64,000 nt of DNA from Candidatus Latescibacterota bacterium (GCA_965248755.1 OZ252149.1:3040001-3104000), one strand, 5' to 3'. Shown: positions 1 through 45,386, counted from the stretch's first letter. The notes: generated by a model from the sequence alone, not told the origin. Program-made: numbers and translations.

Positions 1-1
1 A

Positions 2-88
2 AATTCGTTCGATTCAACTTATGAATTTACTGAATATGAAAACAACAGCCATCTTCATGTAGAACGGGGTGGATATTGCGATTATTAA
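2..88 (+). CDS. Possible 3' end of a CDS entering from the left edge (..NSFDSTYEFTEYENNSHLHVERGGYCDY*)
   Basis: Open frame from the window edge to TAA at 86-88; too short to assign. Confidence 0.3.
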   Translation, partial: NSFDSTYEFTEYENNSHLHVERGGYCDY

Positions 89-201
89 ACTGATGGAACT
101 GCATATACGCCGAGGCGTCTGGGTAATTAGAAGATTCACGCACAGCTATTCCATTTCAGAGTTCTTATAGTAAGTTCAACGATACTTGAAAGGAGCACAA
201 G

Positions 202-1029
202 ATGGGACAAAAACTCTCCCTACCACTATCATTCTTTGTAGGTGTCACTTTGGTTCTTTACACTATTCTTTGGATACCTATTAATGTGAATGCGTCCACC
301 TTGCCTGATCTGAAGGGTTGGACTTTTTCAGATGATGATGCTCAAATCATCAAGTATGCTGATATGCATTCTGCAAGTGCTGTGCTTAGTAAATTGTACA
401 CGCTTTTCATAAAAGAAGGTAAAGAAGCGGTGATAGAATCTGTACCCGCGTTAGTATATAGATTCCATGAGCTAAGAAAGATACCGCCGGAAAAGCATGG
501 AGGCGAAGGTCAAGGAGAATTTGAGGGGTCGATTATAGATTTCTTGGGCAGATTAGGCGATGAGCGCTCCAAATCCGCTCTGCTAGAATCAATGGAGTAT
601 CACTGTCGAGCAGCAGTCAAAGGACTGTTAGCTATTGGACACTCGGTAGTTCCAGACATTATCAATTTAATAGGTAGCCCTCGAGTGAGAATGAAAAAGG
701 GAGCCATAGAAACCCTTCGTCAGATGGGTAAGTTGGATCCCACTTTTTTCACTAAAGATGAACGAGATAAAATCAGGAACAGACTTGTAGCGCTCTTGGA
801 GAATGAGAACGTCAAGCCCGGTGAGAATTACAGTTTTAAAGTTGTCTTGGCCTTAGACGTCTTTGGTGATCTTTCCACAATCCCTATTCTGGAAAAGATA
901 GCGGAGCAGGATTCATTCATTAATTATGGTAGATACCCAACAAGGATCGCAGCACAGAAGGCAATAGAAGAGATAAAAGTTGCGCAGCAATCAAAAAACG
1001 TGATACCGAGCCCTGTGAATTCTGAGTAA
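202..1029 (+). CDS. Exported hypothetical protein with HEAT/ARM-like helical repeats
   Basis: AGGAG RBS, hydrophobic N-terminus, repeated LGRLGDERS / LLAIGHSVV / LDVFGDLST helical motifs. Confidence 0.65.
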   Translation: MGQKLSLPLSFFVGVTLVLYTILWIPINVNASTLPDLKGWTFSDDDAQIIKYADMHSASAVLSKLYTLFIKEGKEAVIESVPALVYRFHELRKIPPEKHGGEGQGEFEGSIIDFLGRLGDERSKSALLESMEYHCRAAVKGLLAIGHSVVPDIINLIGSPRVRMKKGAIETLRQMGKLDPTFFTKDERDKIRNRLVALLENENVKPGENYSFKVVLALDVFGDLSTIPILEKIAEQDSFINYGRYPTRIAAQKAIEEIKVAQQSKNVIPSPVNSE

Positions 1030-1307
1030 TATATGTATGGGTTCCATATTTCCAGATCGAGGTGGTATGATTTGGAATATTTATGAAATCGATGGCAGTA
1101 TGTCAAATGTTTTGAAGAAGTGCATGATCGCCTCCTTCATTGACATATCTACTATCACAGCTCAATTTCTTTAAGTAAACCACCATTACTAAACCACATT
1201 CTGTTCCGCTTTCCCAAGTTTATCTGCAAGAGAAATTACTTCGTTTCTGACAACTGCAGCCTTTTTAAGGCTGAAATCTGTGAAATCACTCAAAGTCCTT
1301 CAGAATC

Positions 1308-1513
1308 CTATATATCATCCAAACTCCTAATTTCCCTCACATATTCAGCCCCACACTTCACCAGCATATCTTTGATCAGGAAACGATGGCAGAACAAATC
1401 TGCCCGGCAATAGCAGACAAGCATCACCTCTTCCATGTTGAGGACCTTATCCCACCTTTGACTGTTGTACTGATTACTCTCCTGCATCAAAAAGAATATT
1501 GGCGAGTGTATTC
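1308..1513 (-). pseudogene. DUF488-like gene remnant cut by IS3 copy 1
   Basis: C-terminal VMLVCYCRADLFCHRFLIKDML resembles the DUF488 C..CHR motif; frameshift next to the IS junction. Confidence 0.45.
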
Positions 1514-1566
1514 TGTACTGCCCCCCTGGAAAGCGACACCGATTAAGCAACTTGGGGTAGCAGATA

Positions 1567-2406
1567 TTATTGTTTTCTCCATTCTTGCAGGGTCTTGTAT
1601 CCCAGGGATGAATGAAGCCTGTTCTTGTTGTAATTATCGATCCACTGAGATATGATCTTCTCAGCCTGTTCAAAGGATTCAAACTTGTGAAGCCAAACAC
1701 ACTCTTGCTTGAGGGTCCTGAAAAAACGCTCTACAACACCGTTCCAATCGGGTTTACCACTTGGTATGTATTCCTGACGAATTCCCCAATATTCGGTACT
1801 GGCCAAATAGGCCCGAGCCAAAAAGATGGAACCATTGTCAGAGCGCAAAGTGAGACCCTGGGGGACAGCCTCCTTGGAAGTGTATCGAGAGATCACGGCC
1901 CGATCCAGGGCATCTGTGGCCTCCAGTGCCCTCCCTTTTCGACTAAAACGATACCCAGGAACCTCCCGGCTTCCGTTGTCCACCACCGCAATAAGAGGAC
2001 ACCAACCATCTTTTCCACAGTAAATCTTTGTCAAGTCACTCGACCACAAACTGTCGGGACTATCCACCACAGAACGCTTCTGGGCAACCTGTGGCCCCTT
2101 TCTCCCGGGACGATTCCACAGCTTACACTGCCACCCCTTAAGCTTCATTATCCTATGAACCTTCTTAACGTTGACACATTCCCCTTCCTTGAAACGAAGA
2201 TGCGCCCAAACCCGCCTGTGACCAAATGCCTCTTCTTGGTCCAGTATCCCTCGAATACGAAAAGCAAGCTCCTCATCTATCACAGGCTCTTTAACAGAAG
2301 AACTGACACCTCTATCCCTAAACCTATACAGAGTCGAACGATGCAAACCCAAAGCCAAAGCTACCACCTTGCGGGAATAGCCTCGACCCAAAAACCGCCC
2401 ACTCAA
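1567..2406 (-). CDS. IS3 transposase OrfB (DDE/rve)
   Basis: WSSDLT, RSDNGS and NGVVERFFRTLKQE DDE motifs. Confidence 0.95.
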   Translation of the reverse strand: MSGRFLGRGYSRKVVALALGLHRSTLYRFRDRGVSSSVKEPVIDEELAFRIRGILDQEEAFGHRRVWAHLRFKEGECVNVKKVHRIMKLKGWQCKLWNRPGRKGPQVAQKRSVVDSPDSLWSSDLTKIYCGKDGWCPLIAVVDNGSREVPGYRFSRKGRALEATDALDRAVISRYTSKEAVPQGLTLRSDNGSIFLARAYLASTEYWGIRQEYIPSGKPDWNGVVERFFRTLKQECVWLHKFESFEQAEKIISQWIDNYNKNRLHSSLGYKTLQEWRKQ

Positions 2407-2732
2407 GGCAACCGCTTCGTTTTTTTTAGACGGGCTACCTCTTCGAGTATCTCCAACTGGAGCGTCAACTGCCCTACCTTGCGCTCCAACCGGCTAACCT
2501 CTCGCTCCTTCGGATCCTTGCGACCACGCCGAGACTTCAGACTCTCCTGGCCCCCTTCTAAGAAACTATCACGCCAAGCATACGCCTGCGACTGGCTAAT
2601 TCCATTCTTACGACACACCTCAGATAGATCTGCTCCTCTCAAAAGAGCCAACACAATCTCTCCCTTACGGGTCGCCGTCCAGCGCTTACCATCTTTCACT
2701 TCGGGGCTCGACACCTTGACCTCCCTTCTCAA
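2403..2732 (-). CDS. IS3 transposase OrfA (HTH)
   Basis: HTH plus leucine-zipper segment; A8 run (T8 at 2420-2427 on +) near the end is a plausible -1 frameshift site. Confidence 0.9.
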   Translation of the reverse strand: MRREVKVSSPEVKDGKRWTATRKGEIVLALLRGADLSEVCRKNGISQSQAYAWRDSFLEGGQESLKSRRGRKDPKEREVSRLERKVGQLTLQLEILEEVARLKKTKRLP

Positions 2733-2974
2733 ACCCCAATTTGCGAAATATTTGTCGCTCTGTCAAGGGGAGCGGTATGATTCATCCTTAAACGTCTTGT
2801 GAGTCTTCCTGCCTGCTGCCCTGTCTGATGCCAGAGGCAAAACAACTATAAGTGCAAACGCTATGATTAGTGCCATTGTAACAATGTTAATCAATCGAAA
2901 CATGAGTCTCTCCTTCCGTGTATTGAAGGTAGCTTAATGATACTAAATATTTAACCCCAAATATACAAAAGAAA

Positions 2975-3391
2975 ATGACGGATGCTAATTTAGAAAATTT
3001 AGAGGGTGAGAAGTTCACCTTATCGCAGATGAAAGGGAAAGTAGTGCTCTTCGACCTCTGGGCGACATGGTGCGGTCCCTGCATAGACGCCATTCCGGAA
3101 ATCCAGAACGTTCACGACCACTTCAGCTTCGCAGATGATGTGATAATCTGGGGCATAAACAGCGGAGAACATCCCGATAAGGTGGGGGCGTTTATGGAGG
3201 AGCACAAGCCCCCCTGGCCTATTTTGCTCAACCAAAAGCGCGAAGTCAACAAAGCCTATGGCATCAGTGGCATACCGACCTTTATCCTGATAGATAAAGC
3301 CGGACGCTGGCAGCACACTCGTATAGGCTACAGCGAGTGGCTCGGTCAGGAATTGATCTGGTTGATTGAAGCCCTTCGGGCAGCGGATTAA
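2975..3391 (+). CDS. TlpA/ResA-family thiol-disulfide oxidoreductase (probably N-terminally truncated)
   Basis: DLWATWCGPC active site, GIPTFILID cis-Pro motif. Confidence 0.85.
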   Translation: MTDANLENLEGEKFTLSQMKGKVVLFDLWATWCGPCIDAIPEIQNVHDHFSFADDVIIWGINSGEHPDKVGAFMEEHKPPWPILLNQKREVNKAYGISGIPTFILIDKAGRWQHTRIGYSEWLGQELIWLIEALRAAD

Positions 3392-3600
3392 GCTTCCTTG
3401 ATTTGGTGTCGATACCGCCACACAGTGTCATTTGTTTTTCAGTAGGCAAGATGAGTATTGAATGAACGTCGCACTGAGCTTGGGAATCTCTCAAAGCTGA
3501 AGCCGAGCACCGTCATTGCGACCTCCGATTGACTCTATCGGGGGCAACGAACCAATCTCAAGGGATGGGGGGATGTATCACCTGTCTACTGTCCACTTGT

Positions 3601-5163
3601 TTAGTATCCTGTGATCCTGTTTCGGGTCAACGCTTGTCGTCTTCCAGCAGTTGTTCTCCCGACCCGCGGCGCTCGCATCACAGGTGCGGTCTTGAGCATC
3701 TGCAGGGCAATAGCCTGAGCGATCACTCTATCATCGTAGCATCCTTCCTGCGCACCCATACCGCCAGTCTCATCTCTCACAAATGTAAACATCTCTTCCA
3801 CGGTCTCCCTGCTGTTCAAGGTAACACCCTCATCTCTTAATGATCCCGCAAGTTCATCGATCATTAAGGGCTTAGTTCTGGCGTTAGTCAGCCATCCTAA
3901 TTTTCGTGAATACCTTGACGGTGAGCCTTTAGTTTCCCTGTCCACTGTCTGGCGGTAATAGACATTGGGATAGCCAAGGTAGCGCTTAAGCGTAACCAAA
4001 GTAGTCAACCCGTGGCCATTTGCCTCCACACCTACAAAGGCATCGTTGTAGAACCTCCCCAGCTTAAAAAGTTCGGTCCCGAAAAGATCAGGATCGGTAT
4101 GGCCGTGCCATTCAGCCACCTGCTCCCCCGTATCTCTTCTGACCACTTGAGCGGACGAGTAATCGCCCTTTTCGAGTCCCTCTGATACATCGGCGCCGAT
4201 CACGTACAGAGCGCCACTCTGCGGAGGCTCCCATATCTTTATTGGCCCATCTTTGGAATGTTCCAGGACGGGCCCAGAATGCGTGTCCGCACGCGCAGGT
4301 AGATCGGACGGTCTGAACCCTTCGGAAGAAATCGTGTCCATATGTAGAAAGCCTCTCGTCAAACAATCCTTACAACCGTCTAACGACACCCTCAGGAGGG
4401 CGGTATCGAACACACATCTTCCACTTATGGAGACAAAGCGCCCCCTGACCCTTATCTCCTTCTCCTCTTCTGAATAGTTCCGTTCCACCCGTTCTATTTC
4501 TTCTTTGGGGATGTAAGGATTATCGTTGAGTGCCGCGGAGAATATCGCTATATCAGGGTCAGAGCTATTTTTGTATATGTGCCTATAAAACCAGGTGAAT
4601 CCCTTCAGGGGCGTCATAGTCCCCCAGATTTCACCCTTTACGTCAACTGTTCTCATAAAACACTCGCGATAGATATCTTCAGGCGGCTCTTCATCGAACC
4701 ATATCCAGTGTCTTGTTACGCCCTGGAATTTATCCCTTCCGGAGTCACACGACTTAAAGCCTATTTCTGACCCATTTTTGAGTTTGATAATCCGGTCGGT
4801 TCTGTTCCAGACATCTATCTGGGATTCGGGCAGATATTTTCTGATCTTTTGCTCTGCGACATCCCTTGATGAAGAAAAGTCAGACGAGACGATCCATCCG
4901 AAATTTGGGACTGGGATATTTCGCTGGGGAGTGAAGCGGTGCTTCCCCAAAGCGAACATAACCACCTCTACAGCGCCAGCCTCTGTCTTCCCAGCTCTAT
5001 TTCCTGCGATAAACCAACGATTGCGCTTGGTAGATCTGTGAAATAGCCTCTGCTTTGGATGAGGCTCATACTTGGACAGAGCAGACGGAAGCCATTCGGC
5101 CTGCCGTTCGAGTTCATCAATTACAGCCTCAACTTTCTGATTGTAGCGCTTCTTTGAGTTCAT
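3601..5163 (-). CDS. terL: Phage-type terminase large subunit
   Basis: Walker A AGNRAGKT, Walker B IWFDEEPP, TMTP coupling motif, RNase H-like nuclease YVIGADV..DYS..DDRVIA. Confidence 0.9.
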   Translation of the reverse strand: MNSKKRYNQKVEAVIDELERQAEWLPSALSKYEPHPKQRLFHRSTKRNRWFIAGNRAGKTEAGAVEVVMFALGKHRFTPQRNIPVPNFGWIVSSDFSSSRDVAEQKIRKYLPESQIDVWNRTDRIIKLKNGSEIGFKSCDSGRDKFQGVTRHWIWFDEEPPEDIYRECFMRTVDVKGEIWGTMTPLKGFTWFYRHIYKNSSDPDIAIFSAALNDNPYIPKEEIERVERNYSEEEKEIRVRGRFVSISGRCVFDTALLRVSLDGCKDCLTRGFLHMDTISSEGFRPSDLPARADTHSGPVLEHSKDGPIKIWEPPQSGALYVIGADVSEGLEKGDYSSAQVVRRDTGEQVAEWHGHTDPDLFGTELFKLGRFYNDAFVGVEANGHGLTTLVTLKRYLGYPNVYYRQTVDRETKGSPSRYSRKLGWLTNARTKPLMIDELAGSLRDEGVTLNSRETVEEMFTFVRDETGGMGAQEGCYDDRVIAQAIALQMLKTAPVMRAPRVGRTTAGRRQALTRNRITGY

Positions 5164-5536
5164 CGATCTTTCCTTCGATCAGGTCCTCAAGTTCACTTCT
5201 GATCAATCTCTGCTTATCCTCTCCGCTGCTTACTTCCTCTACCTTTTTATCCTTAATCTCACTTAGTATCTTATGATAAAGACTCAGAGCAGTCATATTC
5301 CCCTCATCCATCTGCTCTTGTAATCTCATAACGAACTTGAACTCCAAAGACCTTAGGTACTGCTCCGTAAGGCCCTGCTCGAAATCCACAAAGGCGCTGT
5401 CCCTTTGCCATTGGTTATAAAGCGTTATGCTGACCTTTGCCTTCTTAAGCGCCTTTGACCTATCTCCTTGGACATCTGCATCCATCAGCGCCTCAAAGTA
5501 GGCCTTTTGCTTTTGATCCGCTTCAAAATCGGACAT
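5129..5536 (-). CDS. Putative terminase small subunit (N-terminal HTH); start at MSDFEAD
   Basis: Overlaps terL start; HTH-like ALKKAKVSITLYNQW; AAGGAAGG RBS before ATG 5536. Confidence 0.65.
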   Translation of the reverse strand: MSDFEADQKQKAYFEALMDADVQGDRSKALKKAKVSITLYNQWQRDSAFVDFEQGLTEQYLRSLEFKFVMRLQEQMDEGNMTALSLYHKILSEIKDKKVEEVSSGEDKQRLIRSELEDLIEGKIDELKEALQSES

Positions 5537-5584
5537 AGTACCTTCCTTACTAAACAACAGTGCACTATTTACCGGACAGACATA

Positions 5585-5624
5585 AATATAAAACAAACCC
5601 TGTGGTTAGTCAAACCGCAGGGTT
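5585..5624 (-). promoter_or_regulatory. Sigma70 promoter of the terminase operon overlapped by a 12-bp inverted repeat
   Basis: Minus strand TTGACT-N17-TATATT (5613-5585); AACCCTGTGGTT-agtca-AACCGCAGGGTT at 5596-5624. Confidence 0.65.
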
Positions 5625-5833
5625 CGCTATCTTCCGCTATCTTCCTATTTGGGAAAGAATTCTTTGTTTAAGGCTTAACAGACCCAGTCTAATGAAGAAA
5701 AAGATAGACAATAGACAGGCTGCTCTCTCACTATCTACTGACAACTTGCGACAAAACAGATGGGAGGATGTGCCCTGTCTACGCCCGATTGCATCCCCGA
5801 TTGAATCTATCGGGGAGCGGGGGCTACTGTCAC

Positions 5834-6595
5834 CTATCTACTGTATTCATACGATTCACCCGGCTTTAGCTTAATCACCTGTGTCCCAGGAGACAGGAAC
5901 TGGACTTCCTCTCTCAGCTGATCTATATCGGCCCTTTGATTCGGGAAAGTGTCGTAGTGGCAGGGGATCACGATTTCTGGTCTGATCAAAGACGCCGCCC
6001 TTGCGGCTTCCCTTACCCCCATTGTATATTTGCCGCCGACCGGGAGTATAGCGATCTGGGGGCTGTACATTTGACTGATCAGAGCCATATCACCGAAAAG
6101 ACCCGTATCCGCCGTATCGTACAAACTTATGCCGCTGTCCGTCCTGATCACATACCCGGCGACGCTCCCATCAGGTTCATACTTCATGGAGTCGAACCAC
6201 TCAGCCGTATGCAAGGCAGTGGAGTGAAGAGCCTGCACCATAGTAAATGTCGTGGGACCGATCGTACAGGATCCTCCGGTATTTAGGGGGCACGAGTACA
6301 ACTCATTTTCCTCGGGCGCCCCGTCGTATGTAATACCCTGTTGCGCTGCATAGGACCCTATCTCAGGGCTGCCGATAAGCACAGCCCCAGTCTGTTTGAC
6401 TACCTGGATGGAGTCCCCCAGGTGGTCTACATGACCGTGCGTCACGCAGACGACGTCAGCCTCAGTCACATCCACGACCTTCAAGTCCGACGCAGGATTA
6501 TCATTCAACCATGGATCGATGTAGATCGTCTGTCCCTCGTCCGTCTCGAACATAAACGAAGCGTGTCCTATGAACTTAATCTTAATACTCGCCAT
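5834..6595 (-). CDS. Metallo-beta-lactamase-fold hydrolase (UPF0173-like)
   Basis: GHASF, THGHVDH, DT and PCHY motifs. Confidence 0.9.
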   Translation of the reverse strand: MASIKIKFIGHASFMFETDEGQTIYIDPWLNDNPASDLKVVDVTEADVVCVTHGHVDHLGDSIQVVKQTGAVLIGSPEIGSYAAQQGITYDGAPEENELYSCPLNTGGSCTIGPTTFTMVQALHSTALHTAEWFDSMKYEPDGSVAGYVIRTDSGISLYDTADTGLFGDMALISQMYSPQIAILPVGGKYTMGVREAARAASLIRPEIVIPCHYDTFPNQRADIDQLREEVQFLSPGTQVIKLKPGESYEYSR

Positions 6596-10857: not shown

Positions 10858-10886
10858 TTGACAAACGCACCGAAAAACTTTATATT
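10858..10886 (+). promoter_or_regulatory. Sigma70 promoter for tmRNA
   Basis: TTGACA-N17-TATATT. Confidence 0.7.
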
Positions 10887-10945: not shown

Positions 10946-11302
10946 GGGGGTGAATTGGATTCGACGGGGATAGAGGATAGAGGAACTGCGCGCCGAGATC
11001 CCAGTGACTCGTAAAACAATTGGGACAAAATTCAACTGCAGACGATTATTCGTATGCATTGGCAGCTTAATTAGCTGACCCGTTCCTTAGAGCACTTGCC
11101 TGCGGGGTTCTAAGGAGCGTCGAAAAGTCAGGCTGGCTCGATCTTCTGCTCCTGATTATCGGGTAAGATTTCAAAGAGCTGGCAATTTGTATATCCTGTC
11201 TGTTGGAGATGCAAATTGTAAGATTAAATAGATAGACTACGCGTGTAGACGTTTCTTTTGAATTATCTGCGGACGCGGGTTCGATCCCCGCCACCTCCAC
11301 CA
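10946..11302 (+). ncRNA. ssrA: tmRNA; tag peptide (A)ADDYSYALAA at 11038-11070
   Basis: 5' GGGGGTGAATTGGATTCGAC, 3' GGTTCGATCCCCGCCACCTCCACCA, ALAA-ending tag frame. Confidence 0.97.
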
Positions 11303-17548: not shown

Positions 17549-18412
17549 TTAAGCAACCTGGGGTAGTAGATAAAATTGTTTTCTCCACTCTTTTGGGGTC
17601 TTATATCCCAGGGATGAATGAAGCCTGTTCTTGTTGTAATTATCGATCCACTGAGATATGATCTTCTCAGCCTGTTCAAAGGATTCAAACTTGTGAAGCC
17701 AAACACACTCTTGCTTGAGGGTCCTGAAAAAACGCTCTACAACACCGTTCCAATCGGGTTTACCACTTGGTATGTATTCCTGACGAATTCCCCAATATTC
17801 GGTACTGGCCAAATAGGCCCGAGCCAAAAAGATGGAACCATTGTCAGAGCGCAAAGTGAGACCCTGGGGGACAGCCTCCTTGGAAGTGTATCGAGAGATC
17901 ACGGCCCGATCCAGGGCATCTGTGGCCTCCAGTGCCCTCCCTTTTCGACTAAAACGATACCCAGGAACCTCCCGGCTTCCGTTGTCCACCACCGCAATAA
18001 GAGGACACCAACCATCTTTTCCACAGTAAATCTTTGTCAAGTCACTCGACCACAAACTGTCGGGACTATCCACCACAGAACGCTTCTGGGCAACCTGTGG
18101 CCCCTTTCTCCCGGGACGATTCCACAGCTTACACTGCCACCCCTTAAGCTTCATTATCCTATGAACCTTCTTAACGTTGACACATTCCCCTTCCTTGAAA
18201 CGAAGATGCGCCCAAACCCGCCTGTGACCAAATGCCTCTTCTTGGTCCAGTATCCCTCGAATACGAAAAGCAAGCTCCTCATCTATCACAGGCTCTTTAA
18301 CAGAAGAACTGACACCTCTATCCCTAAACCTATACAGAGTCGAACGATGCAAACCCAAAGCCAAAGCTACCACCTTGCGGGAATAGCCTCGACCCAAAAA
18401 CCGCCCACTCAA
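17549..18412 (-). CDS. IS3 transposase OrfB
   Basis: DDE motifs as in copy 1. Confidence 0.95.
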   Translation of the reverse strand: MSGRFLGRGYSRKVVALALGLHRSTLYRFRDRGVSSSVKEPVIDEELAFRIRGILDQEEAFGHRRVWAHLRFKEGECVNVKKVHRIMKLKGWQCKLWNRPGRKGPQVAQKRSVVDSPDSLWSSDLTKIYCGKDGWCPLIAVVDNGSREVPGYRFSRKGRALEATDALDRAVISRYTSKEAVPQGLTLRSDNGSIFLARAYLASTEYWGIRQEYIPSGKPDWNGVVERFFRTLKQECVWLHKFESFEQAEKIISQWIDNYNKNRLHSSLGYKTPKEWRKQFYLLPQVA

Positions 18413-18738
18413 GGCAACCGCTTCGTTTTTTTTAGACGGGCTACCTCTTCGAGTATCTCCAACTGGAGCGTCAACTGCCCTACCTTGCGCTCCAACCGGC
18501 TAACCTCTCGCTCCTTCGGATCCTTGCGACCACGCCGAGACTTCAGACTCTCCTGGCCCCCTTCTAAGAAACTATCACGCCAAGCATACGCCTGCGACTG
18601 GCTAATTCCATTCTTACGACACACCTCAGATAGATCTGCTCCTCTCAAAAGAGCCAACACAATCTCTCCCTTACGGGTCGCCGTCCAGCGCTTACCATCT
18701 TTCACTTCGGGGCTCGACACCTTGACCTCCCTTCTCAA
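18409..18738 (-). CDS. IS3 transposase OrfA
   Basis: Identical to the copy 1 protein. Confidence 0.9.
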   Translation of the reverse strand: MRREVKVSSPEVKDGKRWTATRKGEIVLALLRGADLSEVCRKNGISQSQAYAWRDSFLEGGQESLKSRRGRKDPKEREVSRLERKVGQLTLQLEILEEVARLKKTKRLP

Positions 18739-44378: not shown

Positions 44379-44973
44379 TAACCGAATGTTAAAATGATCC
44401 TGCTAGGCTCTCAGGCTAATCTGAGTATCTGCTTTAAACCATCCAGGGCTTCACGCTGACTCCCTCCATCTCCTCCCATTCTCCTTGCGCTTCTTTTGAA
44501 CTTTATTGAAAAGCCTCTTTGAGACTATGGGTTCCTGTTGTAGCCGTAGGTAAGGTTCCCCCCAGCGTAGGCCCCACCTTTTGCCTTCTGTCATTGCGAC
44601 CGAAGCGAAGCAAGCTCGTAGTCGGCAGCCACGATTAAATCTATCGCAGGATAGACGCCCGATTGAGCCATTCGGGGAGACGCCCGATAGAATCATTCGG
44701 GGGCAGGCCCCCTACTCAAAGGGGGCATATTTGGATCTCTTAAAGTAGCTCAAGAGACTGCTTCTGGGCAGGAGGTATTTTTTCCGGGGCTTGTAGGCCG
44801 AGACCAATCCGAAGTGTGTGTATTAGATGACGTGCCTCTCTGAGCACCGTAAGAACTTTGCTGCCTCTTTGACGGTAAGCATGTCGTGGATATTCATCTT
44901 TTCCTCCTTTTGAATACGCGAGTTTGTCTTTCTCCATCCTCAGATGTAAATCACTTTCTTTTCTGCTCCCAAT

Positions 44974-45066
44974 TGGGGAGGATGGGGAGGATAAAACTAA
45001 ACTTTCTCAAAAACACATTTTTTATTATTATCAAAAAGTCTAAGAAGATCCTCCCCATCCTCCCCA
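44974..45066. repeat. Perfect 19-bp inverted repeat around an AT-rich spacer (ori-like)
   Basis: TGGGGAGGATGGGGAGGAT .. ATCCTCCCCATCCTCCCCA. Confidence 0.85.
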
Positions 45067-45204
45067 CTATTCTCCTACGCCCTCTAATAACCCGATTCCA
45101 AGGTAGTAATATTTTCCACCGATCTTCTTTTTGTCAAAGTGCTCTCCCATCCATTTTCCAAAAGACTGCTTGCTCACTGGCCTGTGTCCGTTTTCTTCGC
45201 ACCA

Positions 45205-45295
45205 TTTTGTGAAATTTTTGCGGGTCGTCCACAAACGATAGATTGAAGGGTATCAGTCTGATCCGCTCCCAGAGGGCGTAGGCGCTCCCAGAGGG
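45205..45295 (-). pseudogene. P4/D5-family primase-helicase fragment
   Basis: AYALWERIRLIPFNLSFVDDP resembles the SF3 helicase A.WRR..IPF motif. Confidence 0.5.
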
Positions 45296-45386
45296 CGTGG
45301 GCGTTTGCCCTGGGCTTGTGGTTGGTCTGCAGGAAGAGCGTGAATGTAGGCCGGGCATCACGAGTTCGGGTAGCCTTACTCGGGCC

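Follow-up and report, generated by a model that had tools for sequence, protein, structure and literature searches.

Terminase operon and its promoter region

The window, a stretch of 64,000 nucleotides analysed as a whole (G000:C1:3,040,001-3,104,000), lies on a single 4.54-Mb contig of a Latescibacterota bacterium and contains two overlapping terminase genes between a redoxin gene (2975-3391) and an MBL hydrolase gene (5834-6595). The large terminase gene terL (3601-5163, - strand) encodes a protein of 520 aa with intact ATPase and RNase H-type nuclease motifs, which matches Pfam Terminase_6N (E 2e-16) and PHROG 2 (E 2.6e-37). Walker A (GNRAGKT), Walker B (WIWFDEE), TMTP and the nuclease acids D325, D334, D477 and D478 are all intact, and the key residues of the motifs are invariant or near-invariant in an alignment of 10 sequences, 7 of them from outside the genus. 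Solved large-terminase chains matching TerL are 3c6a in the nuclease region and 4zni/4znj in the ATPase region. The small terminase gene terS (5129-5536, - strand), which overlaps terL by 35 nt, starts at an ATG after a AAGGAAGG RBS and encodes 135 aa with an N-terminal HTH. With one additional upstream codon included in the query, TerS matches phrog_24579 TerS (E 1.7e-4) and the HTH family PF13022 (E 4.7e-7, residues 8-102), into which its atlas neighbours also fall; a fold prediction made without an alignment was unusable (pLDDT 51). The gene overlap, the intact Walker A/B and nuclease motifs and the location between the two flanking genes all agree with the original prediction.

Positions 1-3391 belong to an 8.8-kb non-phage insert that separates terL from a portal gene outside the window; besides the redoxin gene, they hold an IS with an rve transposase (1567-2732) and a HEAT-repeat gene (202-1029). 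A second near-identical copy of this IS is present in the window at ~17549-18700, with further copies elsewhere. Copies of a dispersed host hairpin repeat are located after terL (3525-3545) and upstream of the terS promoter (5795-5815). Direct repeats flanking terS-terL were considered as att sites and rejected, as they are copies of this 528-copy hairpin.

A sigma-70-type promoter, TTGACT-17-TATATT (5585-5613, - strand), precedes terS. As had been noticed, its -10 box TATATT is also found at ssrA and cca, both preceded by TTGACA-17-TATATT, and at rel, preceded by TTGCGG-17-TATATT; the form TTGAC[AT]-17-TATATT has 123 copies genome-wide. The tmRNA gene of the window (10946-11302) encodes the tag ADDYSYALAA and has a consensus promoter at 10858. 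The predicted 12-bp inverted repeat was found at 5596-5624, with 1 mismatch and a 5-bp spacer, straddling the -35 box. There are 275 comparable inverted repeats genome-wide, compared to 15 per shuffled Mb, and only 2 of the 123 consensus promoters overlap one. The idea that the repeat is a genome-wide operator had to be given up: the full repeat occurs once in the whole genome, and its half-site AACCNCAGGGTT occurs six times, two of them here, with no pattern. The repeat, which is identical in the sister genome (G001) and whose upstream arm belongs to the shared promoter sequence, fits better as a candidate TerS-binding or pac site than as a shared operator.

In addition, the terS promoter carries an upstream box, ATAGGAAGAT(A/T)GC...GCGG (5614-5648, - strand), which recurs at five further promoters, those of the portal gene, of two primases and two more. 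The full form of this promoter family is ATAGGAAGAT(A/T)GC...GCGG(C/T)TTGACT-17-TAT(A/T)TT. A homologue search with the terS promoter led to a second copy 10.7 kb off, ahead of the gene for a 621-aa portal; altogether the family in G000 precedes terS, the portal gene, two primase copies and one 1080-aa protease-like host gene, and a sixth, weaker copy stands before a 163-aa ORF. The copies at the protease-like gene and the 163-aa ORF are located at positions 628,372 and 2,616,101 of G000 C1. In G001 the family also precedes a gene that, by eye, resembles a phage replication protein gene. The promoter had been described as host-type, which holds for its boxes but not for its distribution, the family being small and mostly on phage-derived genes; it is a mobile-element promoter with host-type boxes. 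The box may be the site of a common regulator. An inverted 60-codon primase fragment abuts the terS promoter in G001 (L035:9334-9513), suggesting that this promoter came from or with a primase cassette.

Head-tail-lysis and primase modules left of the window

The terminase pair was thought to stand alone, which turned out to be an artefact of the window edge. Portal, capsid, adaptor, nozzle-like, amidase and primase genes follow on the same strand and contig, 5.2-22 kb left of the window start, and the podovirus-type operon starts 8.8 kb downstream of terL, 5.2 kb beyond the window edge. On G000 C1 (coordinates outside the window refer to this contig, all features on the - strand), a promoter-family copy (3,034,868-3,034,931) stands before the gene for an SU10/P22-type portal of 621 aa (3,032,922-3,034,787, PF23899). 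The region 3,029,705-3,032,962 contains ORFs of 94 aa, 89 aa, 248 aa (scaffold-like), 231 aa (glycosyltransferase-like), ~150 aa and 168 aa, followed by a gpT-like capsid gene (3,028,638-3,029,540, PF25209), ORFs of 320 aa and 89 aa (3,026,790-3,028,223), the adaptor gene (3,025,701-3,026,663, PF24175), a gene for a nozzle-like protein (3,023,596-3,025,104, phrog_3287) and a gene for a 204-aa protein (3,022,862-3,023,476). An amidase gene and two small ORFs, holin-like by position, occupy 3,021,610-3,022,663. The last module consists of a Prim-Pol/D5 primase-helicase gene (3,018,415-3,020,814) and origin-like iterons with an HTH_17 gene (3,018,073-3,018,414). At the far end of the element, a Schlafen AlbA_2 / RecG-C ATPase gene lies between two HTH_17 copies (3,016,500-3,017,960) and represents possible defence cargo.

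The element spans ~27.6 kb including inserts, and every one of its genes is intact in G000. Terminase_6N, the SU10-type portal locus and the capsid are each matched once in that genome. Contig depth across the cluster is like that of neighbouring single-copy DNA, a measure that cannot rank regions. The gap of 8.8 kb between terL and portal is filled with non-phage genes and an IS, and the insert differs from that of G001. However, one TPR lipoprotein gene of the insert is common to both genomes, so the split of the element predates speciation.

The gene order is that of phage contigs such as L168 and L217 (239 loci compared). The element and the uncultured podovirus-type phages of the IMG/VR contigs L168 and L217/L294 have in common the order terS, terL, portal, small ORF, scaffold, 168-aa-type gene, gpT-like capsid, adaptor and nozzle. 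Beyond the nozzle region they differ: the related phage contigs L294-L297 possess three conserved genes of ~290-590 aa, putative ejection-protein genes by position and without a family match, which were not found in G000. The search used HMMs built from four sequences (best E 0.023) and two Pfam families, and the cluster leaves no room for three such genes; since proteins of this kind diverge fast, they are recorded as not found rather than absent. A search for LPD38 gave no match anywhere, the controls also being without a match.

No tyrosine recombinase lies near the element, the nearest of 15 matches in G000 being ~300 kb away, and no serine recombinase match was found within 500 kb. End-to-end comparison for an att-like duplication gave only chance matches of 11-16 nt. 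The element thus lacks the integrase and att sites of an intact inducible temperate prophage, whose virion genes would also be complete, those for ejection proteins among them. By gene content it fits the definition of a grounded prophage, namely genes of phage origin that sit in the chromosome and cannot excise (PMC6379469, PMC13492144).

An intact primase-helicase gene with origin-like iterons is present in both genomes. After each primase end, short repeats face each other across an AT-rich core; the repeats occur in both orientations in all seven copies examined, six of which have a 9-bp spacing. This anatomy matches the origin layout of SaPI (PMC9371898). The C-terminus and iterons of the cluster primase differ between the two species (dS 0.30), which shows exchange with a mobile family. 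Eight further HTH_17 copies or remnants are found in G000, those examined having distinct iterons; in six remnant copies examined the iteron sequences mostly differ. Scattered primase-end/iteron-origin/HTH_17 remnants lie in the window at ~44,700-45,350 and on G000 C1 near 58 k, 112 k, 285 k, 970 k, 1,888-1,893 k, 3,015 k, 3,620 k and 4,187 k. One full primase copy, broken by an IS, lies at 1.89 Mb and shares 93-96% identity with that of the cluster. At 3,934,247-3,939,723 of the same contig, an intact integrase gene, a gene for a related 853-aa primase and small ORFs form a satellite-like element.

Inheritance and selection in two species and decay in the sister

A search of 41 related genomes found TerL in two, G000 and G001 (94%). 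The capsid has full-length matches in 2 of 168 genomes of the phylum, in addition to two weak partial matches. Terminase_6N matches are present in 6 of 166 other genomes of the phylum, and a search for this TerL in three of the Terminase_6N-bearing genomes (G006, G024 and G035) gave no match. Two other congeneric pairs, G006/G035 and G046/G047, have one Terminase_6N match per genome and are possibly further retained prophages. The nearest relatives outside the genus are 47% identical in TerL and 65% in capsid; searches of viral and of metagenome contigs found no close TerL relative, the best segment reaching 51% in each. The three TerLs of the genus form one clade in a quick tree with weak deep branches; the tree had been proposed as a check, and with two species it cannot test congruence.

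In G001, the one congeneric genome, the whole cluster is found at the corresponding site next to the MBL, SDR and rel genes, with its gene order unchanged. The 18 element genes, pooled over this one genome pair without an outgroup, have a dS of 0.098 and a dN/dS of 0.21 (P 1e-58 against neutrality), with 12 of the 18 singly at P<0.05. The background of 160 ORFs in ~250 kb of aligned DNA has a dS of 0.093 and a dN/dS of 0.27, the latter inflated because the set includes some spurious ORFs. Net frameshifts counted in 28 of the 160 background genes probably reflect wrong start codons and were kept out of the evidence. By gene, dN/dS is 0.06 for the capsid (2 amino-acid changes and 10 synonymous), 0.14 for terL, 0.17 for the portal and 0.18 for the nozzle; the values for terS (0.53, 13 changes) and scaffold (0.62) are not distinguishable from neutrality. 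Under neutrality ~21 nonsense changes would be expected per branch, compared to 0 observed in G000 and 2 in G001. The outcomes named beforehand as speaking against host retention were thus not observed: the locus is present in a relative, its dN/dS is not neutral and no assembly break separates its parts.

The element also resembles the host chromosome in composition. Its codon usage falls between the 22nd and 94th percentiles of host genes, and the host hairpin repeats are 3.8-fold denser in it (7 in 16 kb, compared to 528 in 4.54 Mb), the insertions within the nozzle and primase genes being in frame. Where hairpins lie within genes (nozzle and primase in G001, scaffold-like gene and primase in G000), they lengthen the protein by 6-8 residues. 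The scaffold-like gene differs by 25 nt between the genomes, which puts G001 out of frame.

Decay has begun in the sister species. In G001 the portal is stopped at codon 446 and the capsid at codon 259, and the scaffold-like gene and a 76-aa ORF are frameshifted. Both capsid sequences other than that of G000 end at 258 aa; with four contigs showing this truncation, a sequencing error is an unlikely cause. In the portal, the stop is present in G001 only and could be such an error, and two other portals are full length. Of 12 runs, four were compared: X1 matches G000, and X3, X5 and X8 are of the sister type. The adaptor is split on one 16-kb sister contig and carries a 1-nt deletion in X3 and X8, whose contigs also depart from the reference inside terS; TerL is full length in all three variants seen. 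Substitutions restricted to sister assemblies are often radical, for example W140C and G426E in the portal and R171I at the conserved R171 of TerL, whereas fixed differences between the species are mostly conservative. The element was therefore constrained for most of the time since the split, and constraint was relaxed recently in the sister lineage. Against an HMM of its homologues, TerL scores 611 bits in G000 and 607 bits in the sister. Amber read-through of the sister TAG stops was considered and rejected, as no PylS was found above the cut-off in either genome and no CUA tRNA among 47 tRNAs of G000. In the background on contig C6 of G001, 8 of 160 ORFs have internal stops, mostly TAG. 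In both genomes CTAG is found far less often than expected (O/E 0.25-0.30), and CCAG is not among the top mutation contexts (30/2245 vs 13/2239).

Interpretation and comparison with known systems

Judged by gene content and synteny, the terminase pair forms the first operon of a grounded podovirus-type prophage, from which it has become detached. We put at about an even chance the reading that the host has retained the grounded element as a particle module, which replicates without leaving its site and packages chromosomal DNA starting at a pac site. Its integrase and, apparently, ejection-protein genes would have been lost before the two species split, and host-type genes would have cut it in two, leaving terminase, head-tail-lysis and primase modules, each with its own copy of one promoter family. 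In a few cells these promoters would fire, and the primase-helicase would amplify the region in place from the iteron origin. The HTH in TerS predicts site-specific initiation of packaging: TerS would bind the inverted repeat at its own promoter as the pac site, thereby also repressing terS, similar to SPP1, in which pac overlaps the terminase promoter (PMC6316719). TerL would then cut and fill short-tailed heads with chromosome headfuls running from this site, and the amidase would lyse the cell. A virus-derived particle may thus serve the host, as suggested by genes kept as intact as host genes in G000 and decaying in the sister. Moreover, spreading by itself would be difficult for a non-excising and apparently non-injecting element; the selection acting on the capsid, portal and nozzle genes therefore points to a benefit for the host or to a helper. 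As no ejection proteins are known for them, the particles are more likely to be DNA-filled decoys, antagonists or DNA-release vehicles, itself a tentative assignment, than self-sufficient gene transfer agents (GTAs), which we consider doubtful. A more specific version, also unlikely, is a podovirus-derived transducing viriform that evolved independently in Latescibacterota. It would combine a SaPI-type run-off origin, headful packaging of adjoining chromosomal DNA started at pac (lateral transduction that needs no excision), rewiring under one promoter family and unrecognised or borrowed ejection proteins, and would be in the course of being lost in the sister.

The same genes might belong to an ordinary cryptic (grounded) prophage in slow decay, silent or with side benefits only, G000 being merely behind the sister; this is possible, though we hold it to be less probable than a host-retained module. 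Several independent lesions and radical private substitutions in the sister strains fit it well, as do the narrow range (two species of one genus), the missing integrase, the putative ejection genes not found and the inserted IS and foreign genes, grounded prophages being insertion hotspots (PMC6379469). A low dN/dS could then mean that toxic mutant proteins are weeded out or that a former function has ended. However, decay does not readily account for so few stops per branch, for the few amino-acid changes in the capsid, or for mostly conservative fixed differences and a G000 TerL whose HMM score is no worse. According to a review (PMC13492144), defective prophages under purifying selection are already on record, which speaks against a special host-retained status; a model treated in the same review expects cryptic prophages to lose capsid, lysin and terminase genes, which speaks against plain decay.

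Very unlikely, in our estimation, is a helper-dependent selfish element, analogous to capsid-forming satellites, with its own origin, heads and short tails and with ejection proteins and recombinase borrowed from a helper phage. The primase-origin-HTH_17 module is indeed PICI-like, further HTH_17 copies or remnants and one integrase-primase element exist elsewhere in G000, and the primase specificity region was swapped between the species. Yet neither an integrase, which is core to satellites (PMC10085698), nor an att site was found, tail and lysis genes absent from cfPICI are present, and the single chromosomal site with host-level dS, together with the lack of a close TerL relative, argues against horizontal spread. 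We regard as scarcely credible that the terminase pair has a role independent of the structural operon, either that of a co-opted nuclease or one of interfering with the packaging of incoming phages. It has its own promoter, a unique repeat and a distance of 8.8 kb from the portal, and TerL stays full length in three variants while the sister capsid is truncated. But the portal shares its promoter family and selection regime, terS is apparently interrupted in two sister-type runs, one sister TerL is changed at the conserved R171, and G000, which has one capsid and portal locus, contains no other Terminase_6N match. The suggestion of a lone terminase as a DNA-cutting or packaging-interference module therefore lost its ground once the partner genes were located.

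The broader suggestion of a host-retained, split GTA-like module stands in that the element is orthologous in the sister, with host-level dS, constraint on terL, distant outside relatives of TerL and no integrase near; it is weakened by the presence in so few genomes of the phylum, the loss in the sister and the HTH kept in TerS. Altogether, we see in the element a podovirus-type prophage that may be at a young stage of domestication. One species has it intact and under constraint, the sister freshly broken, and this allows the long-standing question to be tested why selection maintains structural genes in defective prophages. Were the element in plain decay, it would be an ordinary cryptic prophage with an unusually clear record. 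A search of the literature on Latescibacter* with gene transfer agents or prophages returned no title describing such an element.

Two of the six GTA features in a published definition (PMC9662315) are found here. Virion proteins derived from Caudoviricetes are represented, as genes, by the TerL, portal, capsid, adaptor and nozzle-like matches, and the element is fully endogenised, with two chromosomal modules 8.8 kb apart (GTAs being often multi-locus). Regarding co-diversification with the host, the site is the same and dS is at the host level, but two species only are involved and the primase was exchanged. The other features are mostly random host DNA packaged, a head too small for its own genome and DNA delivery, accompanied by the statement that replication ability is lost (PMC9662315). 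Delivery to other cells is in doubt here because the putative ejection genes were not found. The TerS of RcGTA is described as having no N-terminal HTH (PMC6854486), whereas PF13022 covers residues 8-102 of this TerS. With particles, expression and delivery putative, we do not class the element as a GTA.

Few GTA-like systems are described outside Alphaproteobacteria, and FpGTA of Faecalibacterium prausnitzii is presented as the first podovirus-like one (PMC12946183). Like FpGTA, the Latescibacterota element is podovirus-like and chromosomal, and its genes are divided between operons; both systems have genes for the terminase, portal, scaffold, capsid, short tail and lysis. They differ in where the split falls (here between terL and portal), in conservation (FpGTA I is present in 12 of 12 Faecalibacterium genomes, this element in two species) and in TerS, which in FpGTA is described without an obvious DNA-binding domain and here has an HTH. 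The word "primase" does not occur in the main text on FpGTA, whereas the element has a primase-origin module. FpGTA particles have been purified, and their DNA delivery is still open (PMC12946183); the likeness of the present element, known from its genes, is one of layout. The layout also resembles that of BaGTA/ROR (run-off replication) of Bartonella, a precedent for an attached origin (PMC6899734). However, BaGTA/ROR is kept genus-wide and experimentally shown (PMC6899734), whereas this element is being lost in one of two species and has a SaPI/P4-type primase-helicase origin with a podovirus-type tail.

In common with cfPICI and SaPI, the element possesses a fused primase-helicase with a wHTH, whose gene is followed directly by inverted iterons on either side of an AT-rich core, a small HTH gene and its own capsid and terminase (PMC10085698, PMC9371898). 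Of the features of cfPICI, it thus shows the primase-replicase module with origin, but not the integrase nor the absence of tail, holin and lysis genes; it has nozzle-like tail and amidase genes and an SU10/P22-type portal. With grounded or defective prophages it shares the missing integrase, vertical inheritance, an insertion hotspot, dN/dS <1 and patchy decay (PMC13492144, PMC6379469, PMC8987985). Compared to these, however, the head, tail, lysis, packaging and replication set of G000 is whole, and one promoter family stands before each module.
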